Shown one piece after another: positions 1 to 8,123 of a stretch of DNA of 12,339 nt (positions are counted from its first letter, which is position 1; every line of letters begins with the position of its first letter). Position numbers and translations under genes: made by a program. The notes beneath the pieces are model-generated. The model was not told where the DNA came from. It saw only the letters and a list, made by a program, of their open reading frames with translations, and did no database searches. This stretch comes from an uncultured archaeon. Lineage in GTDB: Archaea; Thermoproteota; Nitrososphaeria; Nitrososphaerales; Gagatemarchaeaceae. The stretch covers positions 1 to 12,339 of the forward strand of contig CAWFOU010000009.1 of assembly GCA_963817525.1 (NCBI GenBank). The letters are read 5' to 3'.

Positions 1-46
1 CTGGCCTTTCGAGTCGGCGACGCGGGATCGAATCCCGCCCGGGGCA
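1..46 (+). tRNA. tRNA-Glu(TTC), 3' half (5' part lies outside the window)
   Basis: Anticodon arm CTGGC-CTTTCGA-GTCGG (anticodon TTC), short variable loop CGAC, T arm GCGGG-ATCGAAT-CCCGC, acceptor 3' strand CCGGGGC and discriminator A. CCA is not encoded. Confidence 0.92.
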
Positions 47-47
47 T
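34..47 (+). repeat. att core, tRNA-side copy (14-bp direct repeat)
   Basis: CCCGCCCGGGGCAT is identical to 4663-4676. Confidence 0.9.
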
Positions 48-76
48 CACTATCGCGAGTGCTGTTCCCTTCCATC

Positions 77-574
77 TCACGGTCCACCCACGTAGTCGAC
101 CGTCGAGTTCGTGGAGCCTTGCCAGACCTGGGTGCCGTTCGACCACTGAAGGCTGACTCTCATCGTGCCGTCGGCGGTCATCTGCTGGAAGTACCAATCG
201 TGGAGCGATCCCTGGTAGGGTAGCTGTACCTGGAAGGTCTGAGTCCCGTTGCCATAGATCGCGTTGCCGAACAGGCTGGTGGTCGTGAGAACAGAGACGT
301 CGTACGTACCGGCGTACTGACTGCGGCCAGCAGTAGTCCCGTTCTCGCCGGGGAAATATTTGGAGATGTTCGGCGTGTCCCCCACGGTGCAGTTGTCGCA
401 GCTCACCGTGAAGTAGAGGTAGTTCGCCGTCGTGCTCGTAGTCGAGGAGGTAGTCGAAAGTGAGACTGTCGACGCGGGCGCGGGGGTAGTACTCCTGGCA
501 GCGAAGACGGCGCCGAGCGAGACCACCAGAGCGACGAGCGCTACTCCGGTGATGGCCTTGTTGACGTTCTTCAT
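77..574 (-). CDS. Secreted or membrane-anchored protein with putative class III (prepilin-like) signal peptide
   Basis: N-terminus MKNVNKA|ITGVALVALVVSLGAVFAA, Ser/Thr-rich linker, beta-rich aromatic C-domain. ATG lies 4 nt after the upstream gene's stop, preceded by GAGGAG. Confidence 0.75.
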   Translation of the reverse strand: MKNVNKAITGVALVALVVSLGAVFAARSTTPAPASTVSLSTTSSTTSTTANYLYFTVSCDNCTVGDTPNISKYFPGENGTTAGRSQYAGTYDVSVLTTTSLFGNAIYGNGTQTFQVQLPYQGSLHDWYFQQMTADGTMRVSLQWSNGTQVWQGSTNSTVDYVGGP

Positions 575-578
575 CTTA

Positions 579-974
579 TCATCTCCTCGACGCGGGCTTC
601 CTCTCGCCCCGGGCGTTCATCACCTTGTAGACCTTGGGGATGGCCCAGGCGAACCCGATGTGGACGCAGTTGTCGGAGTCGTCGAGGCTGCAGAAGAGGA
701 CCTTGTCCCTGAACGTGAGCTCCGCGATCTCGTTCCGCCTGTTGTCCTTGATCAGGATCCTGTTATCGTCGACCGCGAGCTCCTCCAGGAGAGGCCCATA
801 GCGCCTCAGTTCCTCGTCACCTTCTATCACATCATATAGCAGTTCTTCTACAAAAGCGCCGAGGGCAGGACGGGTCCGCGGATTCGTGTATTTTCTCTCC
901 CGCGCGTGCTCCACCTTGTCGACCATCTCCTCGCGGAGGGAGACGCCCCTCCAACCGGGCCTCGTCATGCTCAC
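579..974 (-). CDS. Hypothetical protein with putative RHH/CopG-like N-terminus and Cys/His C-terminal motif
   Basis: N-terminal WRGVSLREEMVDKVE fits an RHH beta-alpha pattern; C-terminal FCSLDDSDNCVHIGFA (C-x7-CxH, SWIM-like). Start may be GTG 974 or ATG 968. Confidence 0.7.
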   Translation of the reverse strand: MSMTRPGWRGVSLREEMVDKVEHARERKYTNPRTRPALGAFVEELLYDVIEGDEELRRYGPLLEELAVDDNRILIKDNRRNEIAELTFRDKVLFCSLDDSDNCVHIGFAWAIPKVYKVMNARGERKPASRR

Positions 975-992
975 ATGGTGCTGGATGGTGCT
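975..992. promoter_or_regulatory. Tandem ATGGTGCT direct repeat in divergent intergenic region (candidate operator)
   Basis: ATGGTGCT at 975-982 and 985-992, 10-bp period. Confidence 0.4.
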
Positions 993-1024
993 ACATAAGG
1001 TTGAAGATACTCGGCACTGGTGTT

Positions 1025-2185
1025 ATGGCACTGAGGTCGATCCTCTCGTCTGACGTCTCGTCCATCAACGGGACGGAAAGCACCGGGCTGGCCATCTCCC
1101 TGAAGCCCAACACGACCTACGCCATCAAGGCGCACCTCTGGCTCTACGTCTCCGTCGGGAACATTCCAGGGCTACAAGTCCACGCGCCCGCTTCCGGGGC
1201 GGAGCTCACCTACGTCAACGCCATCTACGGCGTCCAGGCGCCGAGCAATGACAGCCAAAACGTGATGTCCGCTCCCAACGTCGGCACGGGGGCCAACTTC
1301 GCGGCCTGCGAGGCTTACGCCACGAGCGCATATTTCGGCGCGGAGATACTGAGCGGAGTGATAACCACCGGAGCGAGCGCGACCACGTTCCAGATAGACA
1401 TAGCCGACACCGCCACCACCGACAAGGTCAAGGCGGGCTCCTGGATAGAGGCCACGCCCATCCTGACGACGACCACCTCTGAGGAAACCATCACGCAGGG
1501 CCTGTTGTTCCCACTGTACATCTACCCGACGTCGCCGGCCTCGACGACCTGGGGTCCCCTCATCTCCATCGCAGAGGCCTACCCGACGATGTCGATCATC
1601 GCAGTCATCAACCCGGACAACGGCCCCGGCACGTCAGTCGACTCCAACTACACAGCGGGCATCTCCGCTCTGCAGGCGGTCGGGATCACCTGCGTAGGCT
1701 ACGTCAACACCTGCAACCCGCCAGGGACACTCCTCTCCTCAGGCACCATCGAGGGTTACATCGCCGAGTGGAAGTCGCTTTACCCGGCCATCACGGGAAT
1801 CTTCTTCGACAACGTCTACTACAACTCGGGAGCCAACGACAGCTTCTACGAGAGTCTGGTGACCTACTGCGGCACCGAGGGGTATTCTTTCACCATCGCC
1901 AACCCTGGTGAGAACGTCACAGACTCCGAACTTAGCATCTGCAACATCACCGTGATCTACGAGAACACGACGATCCCCACGACGGCGGACGTCGACGCCT
2001 ACTACCCGACCTACCCCATCAGCGAGCTCGCGTGGCTGGTCGGCAACGGCGGCCCCACGACGCTCTCGGGCTCGAACTACACCGCCATCGCGGCCGCGCA
2101 GGTCTACGTCAAGTACCTCTACGTCTGCAACGTCTACACGGCGTTCCCGTCTTACCTCGACGCTTTCGTGGCGGCGATCGCATAG
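1025..2185 (+). CDS. Two-domain protein: N-terminal beta-rich domain plus spherulation-specific family 4 (GH135-like) domain
   Basis: C-domain motifs LLFPLYIYP, AVINPDNGPG, VGYVNT, GIFFD, IANPG and VIYE match spherulin-4; Thr-rich linker TTTTSEET. ATG 1025 preferred over TTG 1001. Confidence 0.85.
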   Translation: MALRSILSSDVSSINGTESTGLAISLKPNTTYAIKAHLWLYVSVGNIPGLQVHAPASGAELTYVNAIYGVQAPSNDSQNVMSAPNVGTGANFAACEAYATSAYFGAEILSGVITTGASATTFQIDIADTATTDKVKAGSWIEATPILTTTTSEETITQGLLFPLYIYPTSPASTTWGPLISIAEAYPTMSIIAVINPDNGPGTSVDSNYTAGISALQAVGITCVGYVNTCNPPGTLLSSGTIEGYIAEWKSLYPAITGIFFDNVYYNSGANDSFYESLVTYCGTEGYSFTIANPGENVTDSELSICNITVIYENTTIPTTADVDAYYPTYPISELAWLVGNGGPTTLSGSNYTAIAAAQVYVKYLYVCNVYTAFPSYLDAFVAAIA

Positions 2186-2235
2186 TTGCCGTTCTCCCAA
2201 GGGCTAAAGTGAGATGTTGGAGACCCGAGCCCAAT

Positions 2236-2565
2236 ATGGGCTACCAGGTGGACCTGAACACCTTCATCGCCGCGCTCTCCATGCTGGCGGCCCTGGCCGT
2301 GGGCTACTACAGCAGGGAGAGCTTTCGCAAGGCAAACCCCAGCAGGATGCAGGTCGACATGGACGGGTTAAAGACCCGCATGCAGGATGTAGAGGACCGG
2401 GTTGAGGTCGACACGCAAGAAGGCGCGCTGATTGCAGACCGGCTCAAGATGATTCAAGAGATGCTCGTGGCGAACGCCGCAAGCAACGACAAGAATAGCG
2501 CCCGGGTGGACGGCCAGCTTCGAGACCTCTCTGCGCGCATCGACAACCTCTCCGACAGACGCTGA
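2236..2565 (+). CDS. Single-TM plus coiled-coil protein (109 aa), holin/XhlA-like architecture
   Basis: ATG 2236 within the listed 2032..2565 frame; hydrophobic helix FIAALSMLAALAVGYY followed by heptad segments such as LRDLSARIDNL. Confidence 0.72.
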   Translation: MGYQVDLNTFIAALSMLAALAVGYYSRESFRKANPSRMQVDMDGLKTRMQDVEDRVEVDTQEGALIADRLKMIQEMLVANAASNDKNSARVDGQLRDLSARIDNLSDRR

Positions 2566-2579
2566 CTCCATTTAAGCCG

Positions 2580-2885
2580 CTAACTCTTGGTGCCCCAACT
2601 TCGCTTTTTATCACGCGGGCCGCCGCGCAGCTTCCGGCCGCAGACCCTACCCTGGCGGATCCGCGGGCAGGACCACATCGTCTCGGGGTGGATCGTCGCG
2701 CAACGCTCCGGGCGCGTCATCCTCCTCGAGAAACGGCAGGCCTGGCACAGAAGAGGGTTGGAGACGGGCGACCTGGCGCCGCACTTGGGGCACACCCACG
2801 CATAGCAGAAGTCGCAAGGCTCGTCGCCGACGCGGTGGTCTCCCTCACATGCGGAGCAATACCGCTTCCGCGGCTCCGGGAGCAA
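2580..2885 (-). CDS. Multi zinc-finger protein
   Basis: Four CxxC motifs (CSAC, CDFC, CPKC, CQAC) plus further Cys and a basic tail; TTG start 1 nt after the upstream gene's stop. Confidence 0.7.
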   Translation of the reverse strand: MLPEPRKRYCSACEGDHRVGDEPCDFCYAWVCPKCGARSPVSNPLLCQACRFSRRMTRPERCATIHPETMWSCPRIRQGRVCGRKLRGGPRDKKRSWGTKS

Positions 2886-2886
2886 G

Positions 2887-3432
2887 TCACTGCTCGCGCA
2901 GGGTGCCGGCGACGTCGGTGCCCCTGAGCCCGCACCTGGAGCAGGTGATCAGGTGGGGGCCGGGCTCCCTGGCGGGCTCGATCCCCGGGGGCAGGGCTCG
3001 AGTTTGCGGTGACCGCAAACTGGGGCCGGCAGGCCTCCCCTCGTCCGACTTGAACCGCCTGGGCGTCATCTCGTAGGTGTACCGCTCCAGCCAGGGCGAG
3101 GCCTCGATGATCTCGGCCATGAGCTCCCCTCCAGGGACGCGGCCGGCGGCCAGGAGCACGTCGCCGTACGCCTCGAGCATCGAGACGACCTCCGCCGGGG
3201 GCATCCCGCGCTGCACGTTGTAGTGCAGCTTCAGCCTGAAGAACTCGAGGTCGTCCTTGGTGCGGATGTGCTTAATGCTCTTCCAGCCGGCCTTGATCCG
3301 GTGCGACCCGGAGATGGCCTCGTTTCGCCGGTCGTCCCAAATGACGGGATTGAGCTCCCCGACGACCTTGCGGGAGCGCCGGAGCTCGTCGATAGCGTCC
3401 TCCTGGAGAAACTGCGACGCGGCTGCGGCCAT
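2887..3432 (-). CDS. ParB/Srx N-terminal-like domain protein
   Basis: ELRRS...GELNPVIW...AISGSHRIKA fits the ParB/sulfiredoxin GxxR pattern; C-terminal CSRCG. Confidence 0.75.
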   Translation of the reverse strand: MAAAASQFLQEDAIDELRRSRKVVGELNPVIWDDRRNEAISGSHRIKAGWKSIKHIRTKDDLEFFRLKLHYNVQRGMPPAEVVSMLEAYGDVLLAAGRVPGGELMAEIIEASPWLERYTYEMTPRRFKSDEGRPAGPSLRSPQTRALPPGIEPAREPGPHLITCSRCGLRGTDVAGTLREQ

Positions 3433-3456
3433 GCCCTACTCATTCATTAGCAATTA

Positions 3457-3466
3457 TCTATAAAGG
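3457..3466 (-). promoter_or_regulatory. Archaeal TATA box for the ParB-like and Zn-finger genes
   Basis: Minus-strand TTTATA (3464-3459) about 27 nt upstream of ATG 3432 in an AT-rich gap. Confidence 0.6.
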
Positions 3467-3468
3467 TA

Positions 3469-4608
3469 TCATACGGTGTCAGACTTCAGGTCGCTCTTCC
3501 TGAGGTCGAGCAGCGAGGGGTCGACCTTCGCACCCGCCTGCAGGAGCCTGATGATCTCCGCCTGGTTCTTCTCGATGACCGCTAAGCGGTCGTCCTTGGC
3601 CATCGCCGCCTGGACGGTGAGAGCCATCCCGCACTTTGCGCACGTCTCCGCGTCCGTCGGCGACACGAACCCGCACCTGGGGCAGGCCTTCGGGACCTTG
3701 ATCTGCAGCGTCTCTCCCTGCTTCTTGATGCCGTAGGCGCTCAGCAGCTTCTCGTCGACGTCCCTGCCGCTGAGGTGGATGTACATGCGGGGCATCTTCG
3801 ACCCGATGCTCCAGCCCGCGAAGATGCAGAGCTCCGCCTCCATGAGGAACTTCGCCAAGTGCGTCAGCCTGGTGTGCCTGAAGATGTACGCGGTGACGCG
3901 CTTCCCGATCTTCGCGGCGGCGACCCAGCGCTTGACGACCTTCGCGAGCCCGAGGTACTTCAGCTGCGTGCCGTGGACCCCGTGCGACGCCTCCACCCAG
4001 AGGGGTGCGTCCCTGTCGGGCATCGGGTGGTTCTCGACGAGGTTGGCCAGGAGGGGGGCGGCGTTGATCACACGGACCCTGCGAGGCCCGGTCTTCCCCT
4101 TGCGGATGTAGACTACCGCCCCGAGCTCGTCGAACGCGACGTCCGACTTCCTCAGGCCCAGGAACTCGTGGGGCCTGAACGCGCCCTCGTAGAGCGTCTC
4201 GCACATCGCGCGGTCCCTGACCGACCGGCACGCCTTGCGGATGGCCGTGAGCTCGTCGTCGGTCAGGATGTCCTCAGGCCCCACCGTCTCGTCGGGCGAG
4301 CCCACCTTCAGCCCGTCGACGAAGTCCTTCCCCTTGAGCCACCGGAAGAACCGCTTGGTGATGAGCCGATAGTCGCGCTTGGTCCAGTCCTCGGCCTCCT
4401 TCTGCTTCGACTGAAAGTAGAGCCCGTCGATCTGTCCCCAGACCCCGACCAGGTCCTCCCGGCTGACCTCCCCGAAGGGCTTCCTCAGCCACCACGTCTC
4501 GACGCTGCGCAGGTAGGTGCGGTGCTTCTCGACCCGGCGCTTCGACATCGGCAGGATCGTCTTGATGAAGCGCTCGACGAGCTCCGCGTTGGTGGCCTGC
4601 ACCAGCAC
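3469..4608 (-). CDS. Tyrosine recombinase/integrase with C-terminal zinc ribbon
   Basis: Catalytic motifs AFRPHE (R), KGKTG (K), YIFRH, AGW and MPRMYIH (Y); C-terminal CPRCG-x9-CAKCG; SD AGGAGGTG 7 nt before the GTG. Confidence 0.95.
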   Translation of the reverse strand: MLVQATNAELVERFIKTILPMSKRRVEKHRTYLRSVETWWLRKPFGEVSREDLVGVWGQIDGLYFQSKQKEAEDWTKRDYRLITKRFFRWLKGKDFVDGLKVGSPDETVGPEDILTDDELTAIRKACRSVRDRAMCETLYEGAFRPHEFLGLRKSDVAFDELGAVVYIRKGKTGPRRVRVINAAPLLANLVENHPMPDRDAPLWVEASHGVHGTQLKYLGLAKVVKRWVAAAKIGKRVTAYIFRHTRLTHLAKFLMEAELCIFAGWSIGSKMPRMYIHLSGRDVDEKLLSAYGIKKQGETLQIKVPKACPRCGFVSPTDAETCAKCGMALTVQAAMAKDDRLAVIEKNQAEIIRLLQAGAKVDPSLLDLRKSDLKSDTV

Positions 4609-4662
4609 TCATGGCCACCTCCTATTTGTGCGCCGATGGGATTCTACCCTGCGGTCATCATG

Positions 4663-4676
4663 CCCGCCCGGGGCAT
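4663..4676 (+). repeat. att core, distal copy (duplicated tRNA 3' end)
   Basis: Identical to 34-47 and adjacent to the integrase 5' end. Confidence 0.9.
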
Positions 4677-4692
4677 TTCTTCGAAATGAGAG

Positions 4693-4852: not shown

Positions 4853-5230
4853 ATGGCAGCCAGGGTGAAAGAAGCTGCCGGTGCGGTGGAGAGGACATTG
4901 CTTCCCCGCCTCAACAGCATCGATGGCGAGCTCAAGTCCATCAACACTCGGATAGACTCAGTCAACAATCGGATAGACTCAGTCAACAATCGGATAGACT
5001 CGGTCAACAAACAGATTGATGGAGACATGAAATCAATCGATACCAGAATAGACTCGGTCAGCACAAGAATCGATGAGATGGACAAACGAATGAACATAAA
5101 GTTCGAGTCAGTACATACTCAAATCGACTCCGTCAGGACTGAAGTGCATGGACTTTCCGAGAAGGTAGACCTGATCAAGGACGTGGAGAAGCTCAAGCTG
5201 GAAGTCGCAGAGCTCAAGAGACGCAGGTAG
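4853..5230 (+). CDS. Heptad-repeat coiled-coil protein
   Basis: Continuous heptads of the RIDSVNN/RIDSVST type. Confidence 0.85.
   Translation: MAARVKEAAGAVERTLLPRLNSIDGELKSINTRIDSVNNRIDSVNNRIDSVNKQIDGDMKSIDTRIDSVSTRIDEMDKRMNIKFESVHTQIDSVRTEVHGLSEKVDLIKDVEKLKLEVAELKRRR
4949..5011 (+). repeat. 21-bp coding tandem repeat, 3 copies
   Basis: CGGATAGACTCAGTCAACAAT at 4949 and 4970 (identical) and 4991 (2 mismatches). Confidence 0.92.
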
Positions 5231-5240
5231 TTTTTGAGAG

Positions 5241-6062
5241 TCATTCGAGGCTCACCGAGTCCCCACGGCGGACGTTTCCGCCCCGAGTTACCGACGCGTA
5301 GATTCCCACGACCGTTTGGTTGTTCCTCGCGGCGGTCCTCAAGATGCCGAGGTCTCCTGGAAGGTCGCCCTGCGGCAAGGTCGTCATCACGCACCTGGAG
5401 CAACGCGCGGTGACCTTCAGGCACACCTCCTCGCCCACGGCGACCGTCTTGCCCACCCACGAATTCTCGACGAAGTCGGCCTGCCCGTCCGTCGGTCCGA
5501 CCACGATGTTCGGCCTAAACCGTCTGGCCTCGAAGCGCCCCTCCGGATATAGCTCCCGAAGACGGTCTATCGTGGAAGTCGTGAGAAGATGGACCGGAGA
5601 AGAATCGAAGAACGTGCGAGGGGGCATGGTCTCGTCGGTGACGACCTCTCTGTTGGCGAGCCCCTCGATGTCCGGCCAGTACTCCTCCAAGGTCGGGCCC
5701 TCCAGGCTCGGCCTCATCAGCTTCACTCGTCTCCCAAGGGTCTCTGACAGCGTCTCGTCGATATCTCGGTCAGAGGACAAGAGCGTCCCGTCAGGAAGGG
5801 ATATGCGCACGGGCGGGAGCTCGTCGCTCACCATTGGCTGTCCGGCATAGGTGGCGCGAAAGTCGAAGAGCCGCGCCCACTTCCGCGGGTTCTTCGCGCT
5901 GGCGACCTTTCCCGTCTCCTGGTCGACGAGCGCGAACGCCCGGTCGCCGAGCAGCCCACGCTCCGTCAGGTAGGAAGAATTCAGCTCCTCCCCCATCAAT
6001 GATTTGACGGGATAGCGATGGAGCGAGACCACGGACCCGACGGCTTGATTGGGCTGGCCCAT
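5241..6062 (-). CDS. MOSC domain protein (YcbX/mARC-like, with N-terminal beta-barrel)
   Basis: LHRYPVKS, GLLGDRAFAL, RRFRPNIVV and CSRCVMT (Moco-ligating Cys) motifs. Confidence 0.93.
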   Translation of the reverse strand: MGQPNQAVGSVVSLHRYPVKSLMGEELNSSYLTERGLLGDRAFALVDQETGKVASAKNPRKWARLFDFRATYAGQPMVSDELPPVRISLPDGTLLSSDRDIDETLSETLGRRVKLMRPSLEGPTLEEYWPDIEGLANREVVTDETMPPRTFFDSSPVHLLTTSTIDRLRELYPEGRFEARRFRPNIVVGPTDGQADFVENSWVGKTVAVGEEVCLKVTARCSRCVMTTLPQGDLPGDLGILRTAARNNQTVVGIYASVTRGGNVRRGDSVSLE

Positions 6063-6872: not shown

Positions 6873-8123
6873 GTGGAACTCCTGGGCGCGAGGTCTGCGA
6901 GGATTACCCTTTTCGTGGTGCTGTCGGTCTTTCTCCTCGCGTTCGTCCCCCACGCGTTCGCGTTTTCAAACGGCCAGGCGGCCAGCCTGACTATAGGCGA
7001 GCCGAGCCTCACGTCATTCACTCCAGGGGCGACGCCTACAGGCCTCGTCGGGCCCTACGCCATCGCCTTCGACTCCAACCACGACCTCTGGGTAGCAGAC
7101 GGCTACGGGAACAGAATCCTCGAATACAAGGCTCCCTTATCCACGGGCGAAGCCGCCAGCATCGTGATAGGCCAGTCGGGGTTCACAGGACTTTCCCTCG
7201 CCACAACCTCGACGGGGTTGGATACCCCCAACGGCCTAGCCTTCGACTCGAGCGGCAACCTCTGGGTGGTCGATTCGTCTAACAACAGGGTCTTGGAGTT
7301 CAAGGCTCCGTTCTCAACTCACGAGGCGGCCAGCCTCGTCATCGGGCAACCCAGCTTCACCAACGACGCCTCCACGACCGTGAACTCGACCTCGCTGGAC
7401 CAGCCCTATGGTCTTGCCTTCGACTCGACCGGCAACCTTTGGGTCGCGGACCTCCAGAACGGGAGGGTCTTGGAGTATACGGCGCCGTTCTCCACCCACG
7501 AGGCCGCCAGCCTCGTCATCGGCGAGCCGAGCTTCACAGCGTCCAACGACGAGGTGAGCCGGGCGGGGCTGAACGCCCCCAACGCCGTCGCCTTCGACCC
7601 TAGCGGGAACCTGTGGGTCGTAGACGGGCACAGGGTCCTAGAGTACACGACTCCTTTCTCCACCCACGAGGCCGCCAGCCTCGTCATCGGCCAGAACACC
7701 TTTACGAACAGCAGCACCGTGACGACATCCACGGGGCTCGATTCCCCCAGCGGCATCGCCTTCGACCCCAGCGGCAACCTTTGGATTGCCGACACTGACA
7801 ACGGCAGGGTTCTGAAATACGACGCGCCGTTCTCCACGTTCGAAGCAGCGAGCCTCGTGATAGGGCAGCCAAACTTCACGAGCAGCCTGACGCCTCCGGT
7901 CACTCAACCCACCGCAACCTCGCTGAGCGAGCCCACTGGGATCGCCTTCGACTCGAGCGGGAACCTCTGGGTCGTGGACGGACCTGAGGCCAGGGTCCTT
8001 CAATATGGGGCCACAGTCACGACGGCCGAGTTTCCATCGCTCGCAGTCCCGATTGTTTTCACTGTCGCACTTGCGGCGGCCATAATCCTCGGGGCGCCGG
8101 GAAGAAGATTCCGCCGCCTCTGA
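6873..8123 (+). CDS. Cell-surface NHL-repeat beta-propeller protein with PEF-CTERM-like tail
   Basis: Signal peptide; six PxGxAFDSSGNLWV repeats with IGQ/IGE inserts; C-terminal AEFP, TM helix and RRFRRL; CTATAATA about 30 nt upstream. Confidence 0.9.
   Translation: MELLGARSARITLFVVLSVFLLAFVPHAFAFSNGQAASLTIGEPSLTSFTPGATPTGLVGPYAIAFDSNHDLWVADGYGNRILEYKAPLSTGEAASIVIGQSGFTGLSLATTSTGLDTPNGLAFDSSGNLWVVDSSNNRVLEFKAPFSTHEAASLVIGQPSFTNDASTTVNSTSLDQPYGLAFDSTGNLWVADLQNGRVLEYTAPFSTHEAASLVIGEPSFTASNDEVSRAGLNAPNAVAFDPSGNLWVVDGHRVLEYTTPFSTHEAASLVIGQNTFTNSSTVTTSTGLDSPSGIAFDPSGNLWIADTDNGRVLKYDAPFSTFEAASLVIGQPNFTSSLTPPVTQPTATSLSEPTGIAFDSSGNLWVVDGPEARVLQYGATVTTAEFPSLAVPIVFTVALAAAIILGAPGRRFRRL

Follow-up and report, generated by a model that had tools for sequence, protein, structure and literature searches.

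A 4.6-kb integrated element in a tRNA-Glu gene of a soil thaumarchaeon is probably the remnant of a head-tailed provirus

The window analysed here is the whole 12,339-bp contig CAWFOU010000009.1 (C9) of a 15-contig, 2.82-Mb metagenome-assembled genome of a soil thaumarchaeon (G000; assembly GCA_963817525.1; completeness 95%, contamination 8.75%). Next to the 3' end of a tRNA-Glu(UUC) gene it carries an integrated element, positions 48-4676, which is bounded by 14-bp repeats and encodes a tyrosine integrase (Table 1). We assign a probability of about three in four to the reading that this element is the remnant of a head-tailed provirus left by one large internal deletion. A first-pass annotation of this DNA had offered three readings, a helper-dependent satellite, a minimal integrative element, and an internally deleted provirus; the last of these gains support from a truncated gene, from the gene order of a full-size provirus in a related genome (G104), and from the sizes of those relatives that could be delimited, which are all at least 20 kb.

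The largest open reading frame (ORF) of the element encodes a beta-sandwich domain followed by a GH135 domain, and the latter matches PF12138 (Spherulin4) with an E value of 4e-31 and a score of 108.8 bits against a cut-off of 30.2. When the first 170 residues of this ORF were used as the query, one protein was found, P0006 (525 aa), whose residues 133-525 are 96% identical to the ORF product and which has 132 additional N-terminal residues. These 132 residues gave no tblastn match anywhere in the 2.82-Mb assembly. The ORF itself has TTG and not ATG as its first codon, 26 nt away from where the divergent neighbour begins. As judged by comparison with P0006, the ORF is 5'-truncated, and with its largest ORF truncated the element is not complete. 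Two statements of the first-pass annotation, that the element was complete and that its six ORFs other than the integrase showed no obvious disruption, were therefore not upheld.

The product of the truncated ORF resembles viral tail fibres. A HMMER search of 1.84 billion representatives returned 23 proteins with the N-terminal beta domain of the fibre; in most of the 22 sequence homologues, this domain lies at the C-terminal end. Among 10 of these homologues that were scanned, 7 had no Pfam match and 7 had no PHROG match, and one had weak tail-fibre PHROG matches (6e-4 and 3e-3). In an AlphaFold model of P0006 derived from the alignment of these proteins (mean pLDDT 61; 75-94 in the central domain and 50-80 in the GH135 part), the top Foldseek matches in BFVD were Caudovirales tail-fibre-type proteins, with E values down to 1.2e-12, a viral label that is partly built in because BFVD holds viral proteins only. 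Against PDB, the best match of the same model was the phi812 central-spike knob (5e-9), followed by carbohydrate-binding modules of glycosidases. The Atlas clusters obtained for residues 1-300 were viral (Uroviricota, score 0.93), which we take as a lead only.

The C-terminal domain of the P0006 model aligned with the GH135 enzyme Sph3 (5d6t) with a probability of 1.00 and a TMt of 0.58. In this model and in its PF12138 match, the GH135 domain of the window resembles Aspergillus Sph3 (PDB 5d6t/5c5g; TMt 0.57-0.58), and unlike Sph3 it is fused behind a tail-fibre-type beta-sandwich domain. The earlier description of the large ORF as a GH135 domain joined to a virus-like fibre domain is therefore confirmed. 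Four stand-alone Spherulin4 paralogues (34-44% identity) are present elsewhere in the assembly.

Sequences from other habitats bear on the left border of the truncated gene. A 2366-nt contig from a bog metagenome matches positions 1031-1927 with 23 differences (∼97% identity), and its leftward 1469 nt are dissimilar to the window; lake and bog contigs that match up to position 3472 diverge beyond it. From these matches, we conclude that the block 1031-3472 is in circulation in other habitats, where it is 97-99.9% identical and has different neighbours.

The relative order and strands of the genes from the integrase to the truncated fibre gene are those found at one end of an apparently full 32.7-kb head-tailed provirus. 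This provirus lies at the tRNA-Glu(CUC) gene of G104, a single-contig closed genome from another genus of the same family. Starting from the tRNA, it encodes an integrase (59% identical to that of the window), homologues of the 181-aa protein p181 (46%) and of the 101-aa protein p101 (36%), a 104-aa transmembrane (TM)/coiled-coil ORF on the opposite strand, and a 237-aa fibre-tip protein (39%); the integrase gene has an apparent frameshift near its zinc ribbon. Further along the same operon are a gene for a 1214-aa LamG protein, one for a tape-measure protein (phrog_58, 3.7e-19), and a weak major-head match (4.4e-4), and the operon also contains a portal (PF04860, 1.3e-12, above the cut-off), a large terminase (phrog_9, 2.6e-13), and a HerA-like ATPase. 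At the integrase-distal end, a gene of the family of the 131-aa protein p131 and a zinc-ribbon ORF are followed by GGGGAACTTGACCCGCAGGTCCCATG and CCCGCCCGGGGCA, 32,744 bp from the core copy in the tRNA. Because these modules are shared, we read the element of the window as such a provirus reduced to its two end modules, which meet at about codon 133 of the fibre gene. A 3.45-kb mini element within G104, suggested by a second "core" at L056:5489, was rejected, as this site lies within overlapping ORFs of the long operon and the true arm and core are 32.7 kb away.

None of the three integrase relatives that can be delimited is smaller than 20 kb. In addition to the G104 provirus, these are an element in G079, in which an integrase (56-57% identity, tblastn/HMMER), an arm, and a core are found 56,880 bp on from tRNA-Glu(UUC), in the orientation of the window, and one in G096, in which the same integrase-arm-core end stands at the start of a 20.4-kb contig, so that the element is at least 20 kb and limited by the contig. 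The pair of p181 and p101 genes is also present on a 38.8-kb JGI metagenome contig (L025), which has a HerA/TrwB-like ATPase and three more genes in common with the G104 provirus; the p101 homologue adjoins the p181 homologue both there (51% identity for p101) and in G104. The first-pass annotation had proposed that syntenic elements be sought in related genomes, and had held that homologues that are always much larger would favour a decayed provirus over a satellite. The syntenic element that was found is the 32.7-kb provirus of G104, and since all relatives that could be sized reach at least 20 kb, a decayed provirus is favoured by that same measure.

Searches of the seven ORFs of the element against Pfam, PHROGs, and NCBIfam gave no major capsid, portal, or large terminase family. 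The same searches gave no primase/replicase, small terminase, capsid-size, or packaging-redirection family; three of the ORFs have no match at all, and for these remote homology is possible. These results agree with the earlier statement that Rep, primase, and capsid genes are absent.

The element is delimited by two copies of CCCGCCCGGGGCAT, which consists of the 3'-terminal 13 nt of the tRNA and one additional base. This sequence (repeat family D18) occurs exactly twice in the window, with a chance expectation of 0.01 and two or more matches in 0 of 200 shuffles. One further exact 14-mer pair (D19) is present in the window by chance, so the 14-bp repeat owes its weight as evidence solely to its coincidence with the end of the tRNA and its position beside the integrase. 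The window begins inside the tRNA gene, from which we conclude that its left edge is an assembly break. The full gene is found on contig C8 as a 96-nt tRNA (48.8 bits, Rfam) with the anticodon loop CUUUCGA, hence the anticodon UUC and tRNA-Glu. Together, the exact copies and the Rfam identification of the C8 gene substantiate the 14-bp repeat of the tRNA-Glu 3' end that had been noticed at the outset.

The C8 gene (C8:23860-23955 = L002:1501-1596, minus strand) has a 26-nt insertion in its D-loop, and because of this insertion ARAGORN detected no tRNA in either the window or C8. The same insertion is present in the tRNA-Glu(UUC) of G079 (C66 near 121,320-121,398) and is conserved in the genus and in one other genus; it is probably a non-canonical intron.

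On the element side, the core is preceded by an arm that is conserved in related elements. The arm, core, and flank of the right end of the window are 77-82% identical to C1:3344-3442, and nine junctions from seven assemblies can be aligned (alignment A3), with the consensus GGGGAATTTAACCCGCAGG-N-CCCGCCCGGGGCA. An inverted copy of this arm (the P' arm) lies directly after the tRNA in the intact relatives in G104 and G079 and was not found in the window. The missing tRNA-side arm is a second sign of decay. The possibility that the arm motif is a piece of the tRNA T-arm or half of a split tRNA was dropped, as there was no convincing pairing.

The integrase is uninterrupted, as the first-pass annotation had stated. 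Its ORF matches PF00589 (E=4.8e-13, Pfam), phrog_1 (1.8e-19, PHROGs), and XerA NF040815 (5.6e-18, below the equivalog cut-off, NCBIfam), and in an alignment with the XerA structure 4a8e the catalytic Arg, Lys, and second Arg are in place. The HxxR motif has Tyr instead of His; because the G104 homologue shares this Tyr, we read it as a trait of the clade and not as a lesion. In the C-terminal motif GW...MYIHLS, the Trp and Tyr were read from the sequence by eye.

Based on these results, we propose that the tRNA-Glu(UUC) gene of a soil thaumarchaeon would have received, at its 3' end, a head-tailed (Caudoviricetes-like) provirus inserted by the tyrosine integrase of that provirus, an event that would have duplicated the terminal 13-14 bp of the tRNA. 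One internal deletion, with a size of ∼28 kb as estimated from the G104 provirus, would then have removed the replication, packaging, head, and tail genes and joined the integrase-distal end, with the 131-aa and 165-aa genes, to about codon 133 of the tail-fibre/GH135 gene. The survivors would be, at the integrase end, the genes for the integrase, the ParB-like, the zinc-ribbon, and the membrane/coiled-coil proteins and the truncated fibre gene, and on the tRNA side the two small genes. We infer that the deletion was a single event of this size and that it entailed the loss of particle formation and self-replication; the remnant might be excisable by its own integrase. Defective (cryptic) bacterial prophages, such as those of Escherichia coli K-12, retain an integrase, att sites, and a few late or accessory genes after internal deletion, and broken tail-fibre genes are typical of them. 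The element of the window is like these prophages in its leftover gene set and differs from them in its archaeal host and its unrelated genes.

Table 1. Coordinates of the features discussed; positions are those of the window unless a contig is named
Feature	Position	Strand	Support or remark
3' 46 nt of tRNA-Glu(UUC)	1..46	+	46/46 identical to C8:23860-23905
attL copy of the 14-bp core (last 13 nt of tRNA plus one base)	34..47	+	
165-aa protein: N-terminal hydrophobic signal/anchor, Ser/Thr-rich linker, beta-rich domain	77..574	-	signal/anchor read from sequence
131-aa protein (p131)	579..974	-	patchy multicopy thaumarchaeal family
Inferred deletion junction	975..1031	.	homology to full-length fibre gene P0006 starts at nt 1010
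5'-truncated fibre/receptor-binding-like gene, 394 aa	1001..2185	+	beta-sandwich tip (aa ~8-158); GH135 Sph3/Spherulin4 (aa 168-393)
109-aa protein, N-terminal membrane segment and coiled coil	2236..2565	+	weak XhlA/hemolysin matches below family cut-off
101-aa Cys-rich zinc-ribbon protein (p101)	2580..2885	-	always adjoins ParB-like gene
181-aa protein (p181)	2887..3432	-	ParB/Srx-like N-terminal domain probable
Tyrosine integrase with C-terminal zinc ribbon, ORF uninterrupted	3469..4608	-	PF00589, phrog_1, XerA
Element-side P arm with motif GGGATTCTACCCTGCGGTC, conserved beside core in related elements	4632..4662	+	junction alignment A3
attR copy of the 14-bp core	4663..4676	+	
G104 provirus	G104:C1:543047-575790 (L056:2047 to L058:16789)		

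Several observations weigh against a deleted provirus. The G104 provirus, at 36-59% identity and in another genus, is a model for the ancestor and not the ancestor; its 104-aa TM/coiled-coil protein and the 109-aa protein of the window are positional counterparts with no BLASTP similarity, and the 165-aa protein has no counterpart in it. What the 56.9-kb element of G079 has in common with the window is limited to the integrase and a p131-like gene, and the cargo of that element has no similarity to the virion genes of G104. The integrase/att module therefore travels with different cargo, and a small chimeric element could be built from such modules. Perfect att core repeats and an uninterrupted integrase are not needed in a long-dead remnant, and IMG/VR viral contigs yielded no relatives of either p181 or the fibre domain. 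Finally, none of the Logan contigs shown, which are short and have a depth of 3-5x, spans the deletion junction, where an assembly join is possible.

The alternative that survives best is that the element is an autonomous minimal integrative element, cryptic or plasmid-like, which gained a fibre fragment from a virus and in which the ParB-like protein or the ribbon-helix-helix (RHH)-like protein serves replication or maintenance. Such an origin would account for the perfect 14-bp repeats and the uninterrupted integrase, the G079 element provides an example of the integrase/att module with unrelated cargo, and other elements at this tRNA in the genus, for example that of G009, lack virus genes. 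Cryptic elements down to 2.6 kb without a recognisable replication gene are, moreover, described for Thaumarchaeota in the passages of PMC6563490 on integrated elements. We consider this origin unlikely, because four homologous genes and one positional analogue follow the order of an end module of a full provirus, the largest gene lacks its 5' part, no small relative was found (0 of the 3 that can be delimited are below 20 kb), and the tRNA-side arm of the intact relatives is missing.

Still less probable is a helper-dependent satellite that has kept an integrase, att sites, and a few virion-surface genes and is packaged by a related head-tailed virus. The small size, the presence of an integrase, and the absence of capsid and replication genes fit a satellite, and the occurrence of the block 1031-3472 at 97-99.9% identity in lake and bog contigs indicates that a close relative of the parent virus, a potential helper, is circulating. 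The archaeal pSSVx and pSSVi and the bacterial PICI- and P4-type satellites are likewise small, some of them with an integrase, and form helper-dependent particles, but they have their own replication genes, helper-exploitation genes, and intact genes. The element of the window is unlike them in that neither type of gene was found and one gene is truncated. No typical satellite gene was identified with Pfam, PHROG, or NCBIfam, the fibre gene lacks the N-terminal part of its full-length homologues, no circular or excised form was seen among the short 3-5x Logan contigs shown, and multiple independent copies of the 4.6-kb form were not found. With the element incomplete, no replication or helper-hijack gene found, and the P' arm missing, the proposals of a complete mini element and of a helper-dependent satellite in the first-pass annotation are not favoured.

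The weakest alternative, an assembly artefact in which a chimeric contig was joined at shared or low-coverage sequence near position 1000, or at the tRNA, and the 4.6-kb unit exists in no cell, draws on a bin that mixes two haplotypes with 8.75% contamination and small contigs that are 91-100% identical to parts of large ones, on a contig start inside a tRNA, and on a depth of ∼3-5x in the likely source runs, yet we regard it as very improbable. A 98%-identical p181 lies on a 12,656-bp contig from another data source, which suggests that a comparable contig was assembled independently; the reading frames flanking the junction are open and lie close together; and contigs from soil runs are 100% identical both to the element and to its flank.

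The Logan search on which several of these points depend found parts of the window in 13 runs, with a best share of 0.36 of the sampled words, and the contigs of four runs were compared; these contigs are a few hundred bases long, have a depth of 3-5x, and drop rare variants, and stretches of the window that they leave uncovered carry no weight here. Those from two soil runs match both the element and its flank at 100% identity. When attP and attB were looked for, none of the contigs shown, short and of this depth, bridges positions 47 and 4676 or joins 4676 to 47, and a circular joint between 47 and 4663 is not among the joints listed for the four runs.

The orientation of the integrase module differs among the relatives. 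In the window, G096, and G079 it faces away from the tRNA, but in G104 it adjoins the tRNA; the integrase-side arm is the same in all four. The attachment region is near-palindromic, consisting of an arm, a core with a central CCCGGG, and an inverted arm (window 4623-4685; L056:2024-2086; the G079 junctions). An integrase-mediated flip of the integrated provirus was rejected as the source of the two orientations, since it would destroy the 3' end of the tRNA, and the tRNAs are intact in both types. It is conceivable, although we think it doubtful, that this integrase family uses a near-palindromic site (inverted arms ACCCGCAGG / CCTGCGGGT around the CCCGGG core), so that the module can sit either way relative to the tRNA, and that the remnant is still excisable and spreads as a defective, helper-packaged passenger of a circulating parent virus.

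The genes are distributed in the manner of a mobile element. When 97 genomes of the family were searched with the integrase of the window, 31 gave matches at E<=1e-30, of which the closest (49-61% identity) are all in other genera. The p181 gene is present in 4 of the 97 family genomes and in 0 of the 22 further genomes of the genus. The interior of the element, when compared with 40 relatives, had no DNA match except short matches to p131, and an exact empty site matching the flank of the window was not found. At the site of the element, the sister haplotype of the window in the same bin (contig C1, with a flank identity of 91-92%) carries other DNA. This variable presence, together with the different elements found at the same tRNA, bears out the view that the element is mobile and not part of a fixed core genome.

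Within the genus, a different integrase, 33-40% identical to that of the window, lies directly beside this tRNA in G009 (9,661 bp between cores), G012 (29,842 bp), G020, and contig C8, and other DNA lies downstream of the tRNA in G014 and G018. The 9.66-kb element of G009 contains the integrase, a DnaJ gene, and an NHL protein, without virus genes. On C8 (22650-23790, L002), the second integrase is directly downstream of the full tRNA-Glu and apparently frameshifted, and a DnaJ-domain gene comes next; the islands of G009 and G012 begin with the same pair of integrase and DnaJ genes (91-94% identity). Contig C1 has two copies of the arm and core (at 3374 and 5597; C1:3344-3387 and 5570-5609, L007), the first of which is 77-82% identical to the right junction of the window including the flank. 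These scars bracket a gene for a 646-aa adenylate/guanylate-cyclase-like protein with TPR repeats, as read by eye, and metabolic genes lie to the left. The C1 scars resemble the traces of a tandem array of elements that has decayed in the sister haplotype. We also considered whether C8, with its tRNA and second integrase, might belong with the start of C1 to a single island collinear with the 29.8-kb island of G012, but the match is confined to the first ∼2 kb and two short pieces.

Integrases of the same clade as that of the window (49-52% identical) are also found immediately downstream of a tRNA that contains an intron and has a CAT anticodon loop, at L054 (G104:C1 near 1,522,300) and L057 (G062:C2 near 160,200), with a similar arm after them. 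From their position, we conclude that the clade also targets another tRNA.

The other small ORFs of the element are poorly represented in databases. The p181 protein has a weak match to the ParB-like family phrog_620 (E=1e-3), and its sole match among PDB profiles is ParB 7o0n (E=0.45) over the same residues, with no Pfam match; it probably has a ParB/Srx-like N-terminal domain. A terminal CxxC pair in p181 may form a zinc ribbon, for which there is no family match. Only 5 homologues of p181 were found among 5.8 billion proteins, and a model from the 5-sequence alignment (pLDDT 44) was too poor for a fold search. A pattern scan of IMG/VR viral contigs and GTDB species genomes gave no p181 relatives.

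The p131 family is present in 25 of the 97 family genomes, with up to 8 matches per genome. In the Atlas, the clusters closest to it consist of Nitrososphaerota proteins, with RHH_1 in 11% of the members of one cluster; p131 is possibly a ribbon-helix-helix regulator, which is put forward as a lead only. The 165-aa ORF has no family match in Pfam, PHROG, or NCBIfam, and its single non-self homologue (58% identity) is on a 58-kb contig. This protein had been described as pilin-like, a description that is not supported, as there is no pilin family match and its N terminus, read by eye, looks like an ordinary signal/anchor.

The window is a second-haplotype, minor version of C1:1-12900, as indicated by identities of 90.8% between C9:5244-6747 and C1:7179-8683 and of 92.0% between C9:8206-12339 and C1:8757-12900. 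Many of the small contigs (C2-C6 and C9-C15) have ends with 91-100% identity to internal parts of the three large contigs C1, C7, and C8. As the small contigs resemble parts of the large ones, the bin is a mixture of two related haplotypes. Directly outside the element, window 4853-5230 encodes a 125-aa coiled-coil protein, DUF7310-like (below the cut-off), built from 21-nt tandem repeats and located in a low-GC stretch (0.48); paralogues are present elsewhere in the genome, and one soil contig is without one 21-nt unit. A repeat-rich gene with internal repeats of 168-186 nt (window 6873-8123 and C1:5684-6958) lies on opposite sides of a MOSC-like gene in the two haplotypes, a local rearrangement. 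The C1 product was read by eye as an NHL-type beta-propeller, and a Pfam NHL match was obtained only for a similar G009 protein.

Integrated elements of Thaumarchaeota were surveyed by Krupovic et al. 2019 (PMC6563490), whose passages on this subject report 74 integrated elements in 20 thaumarchaeal genomes, tRNA genes as the target of 39 of 68 mapped insertions, with the 3' part used in all but one of these, and a median att length of 17 bp. The cryptic integrated elements described there range from 2.6 to 98 kb, many without a recognisable replication gene; head-tailed proviruses are described too, and arrays of elements at one site are mentioned. Measured against these passages, the element of the window is a further case of the thaumarchaeal cryptic integrated elements and provirus remnants, as it shares with them the tyrosine integrase, the insertion at the 3'-distal end of a tRNA gene, a short att (13-14 bp versus the median of 17 bp, here in an intron-containing tRNA), a size within the range, and the lack of a recognisable replication gene. 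Unlike the cryptic elements in those passages, it can be traced to a head-tailed provirus through synteny and a truncated fibre gene, and its host belongs to a non-ammonia-oxidising soil lineage.

For annotation, the element should be labelled a provirus remnant, an ordinary genomic fossil, and not a novel mini-virus or satellite. To our knowledge, few viruses of this lineage are known. The present analysis provides leads for the non-ammonia-oxidising soil thaumarchaea in the form of a head-tailed provirus family, with the 32.7-kb G104 element as a member, and of a tRNA-Glu integration hot spot. The predicted tail-fibre protein with a GH135 glycosidase domain would, in addition, hint at the type of host surface polysaccharide that these viruses cut.

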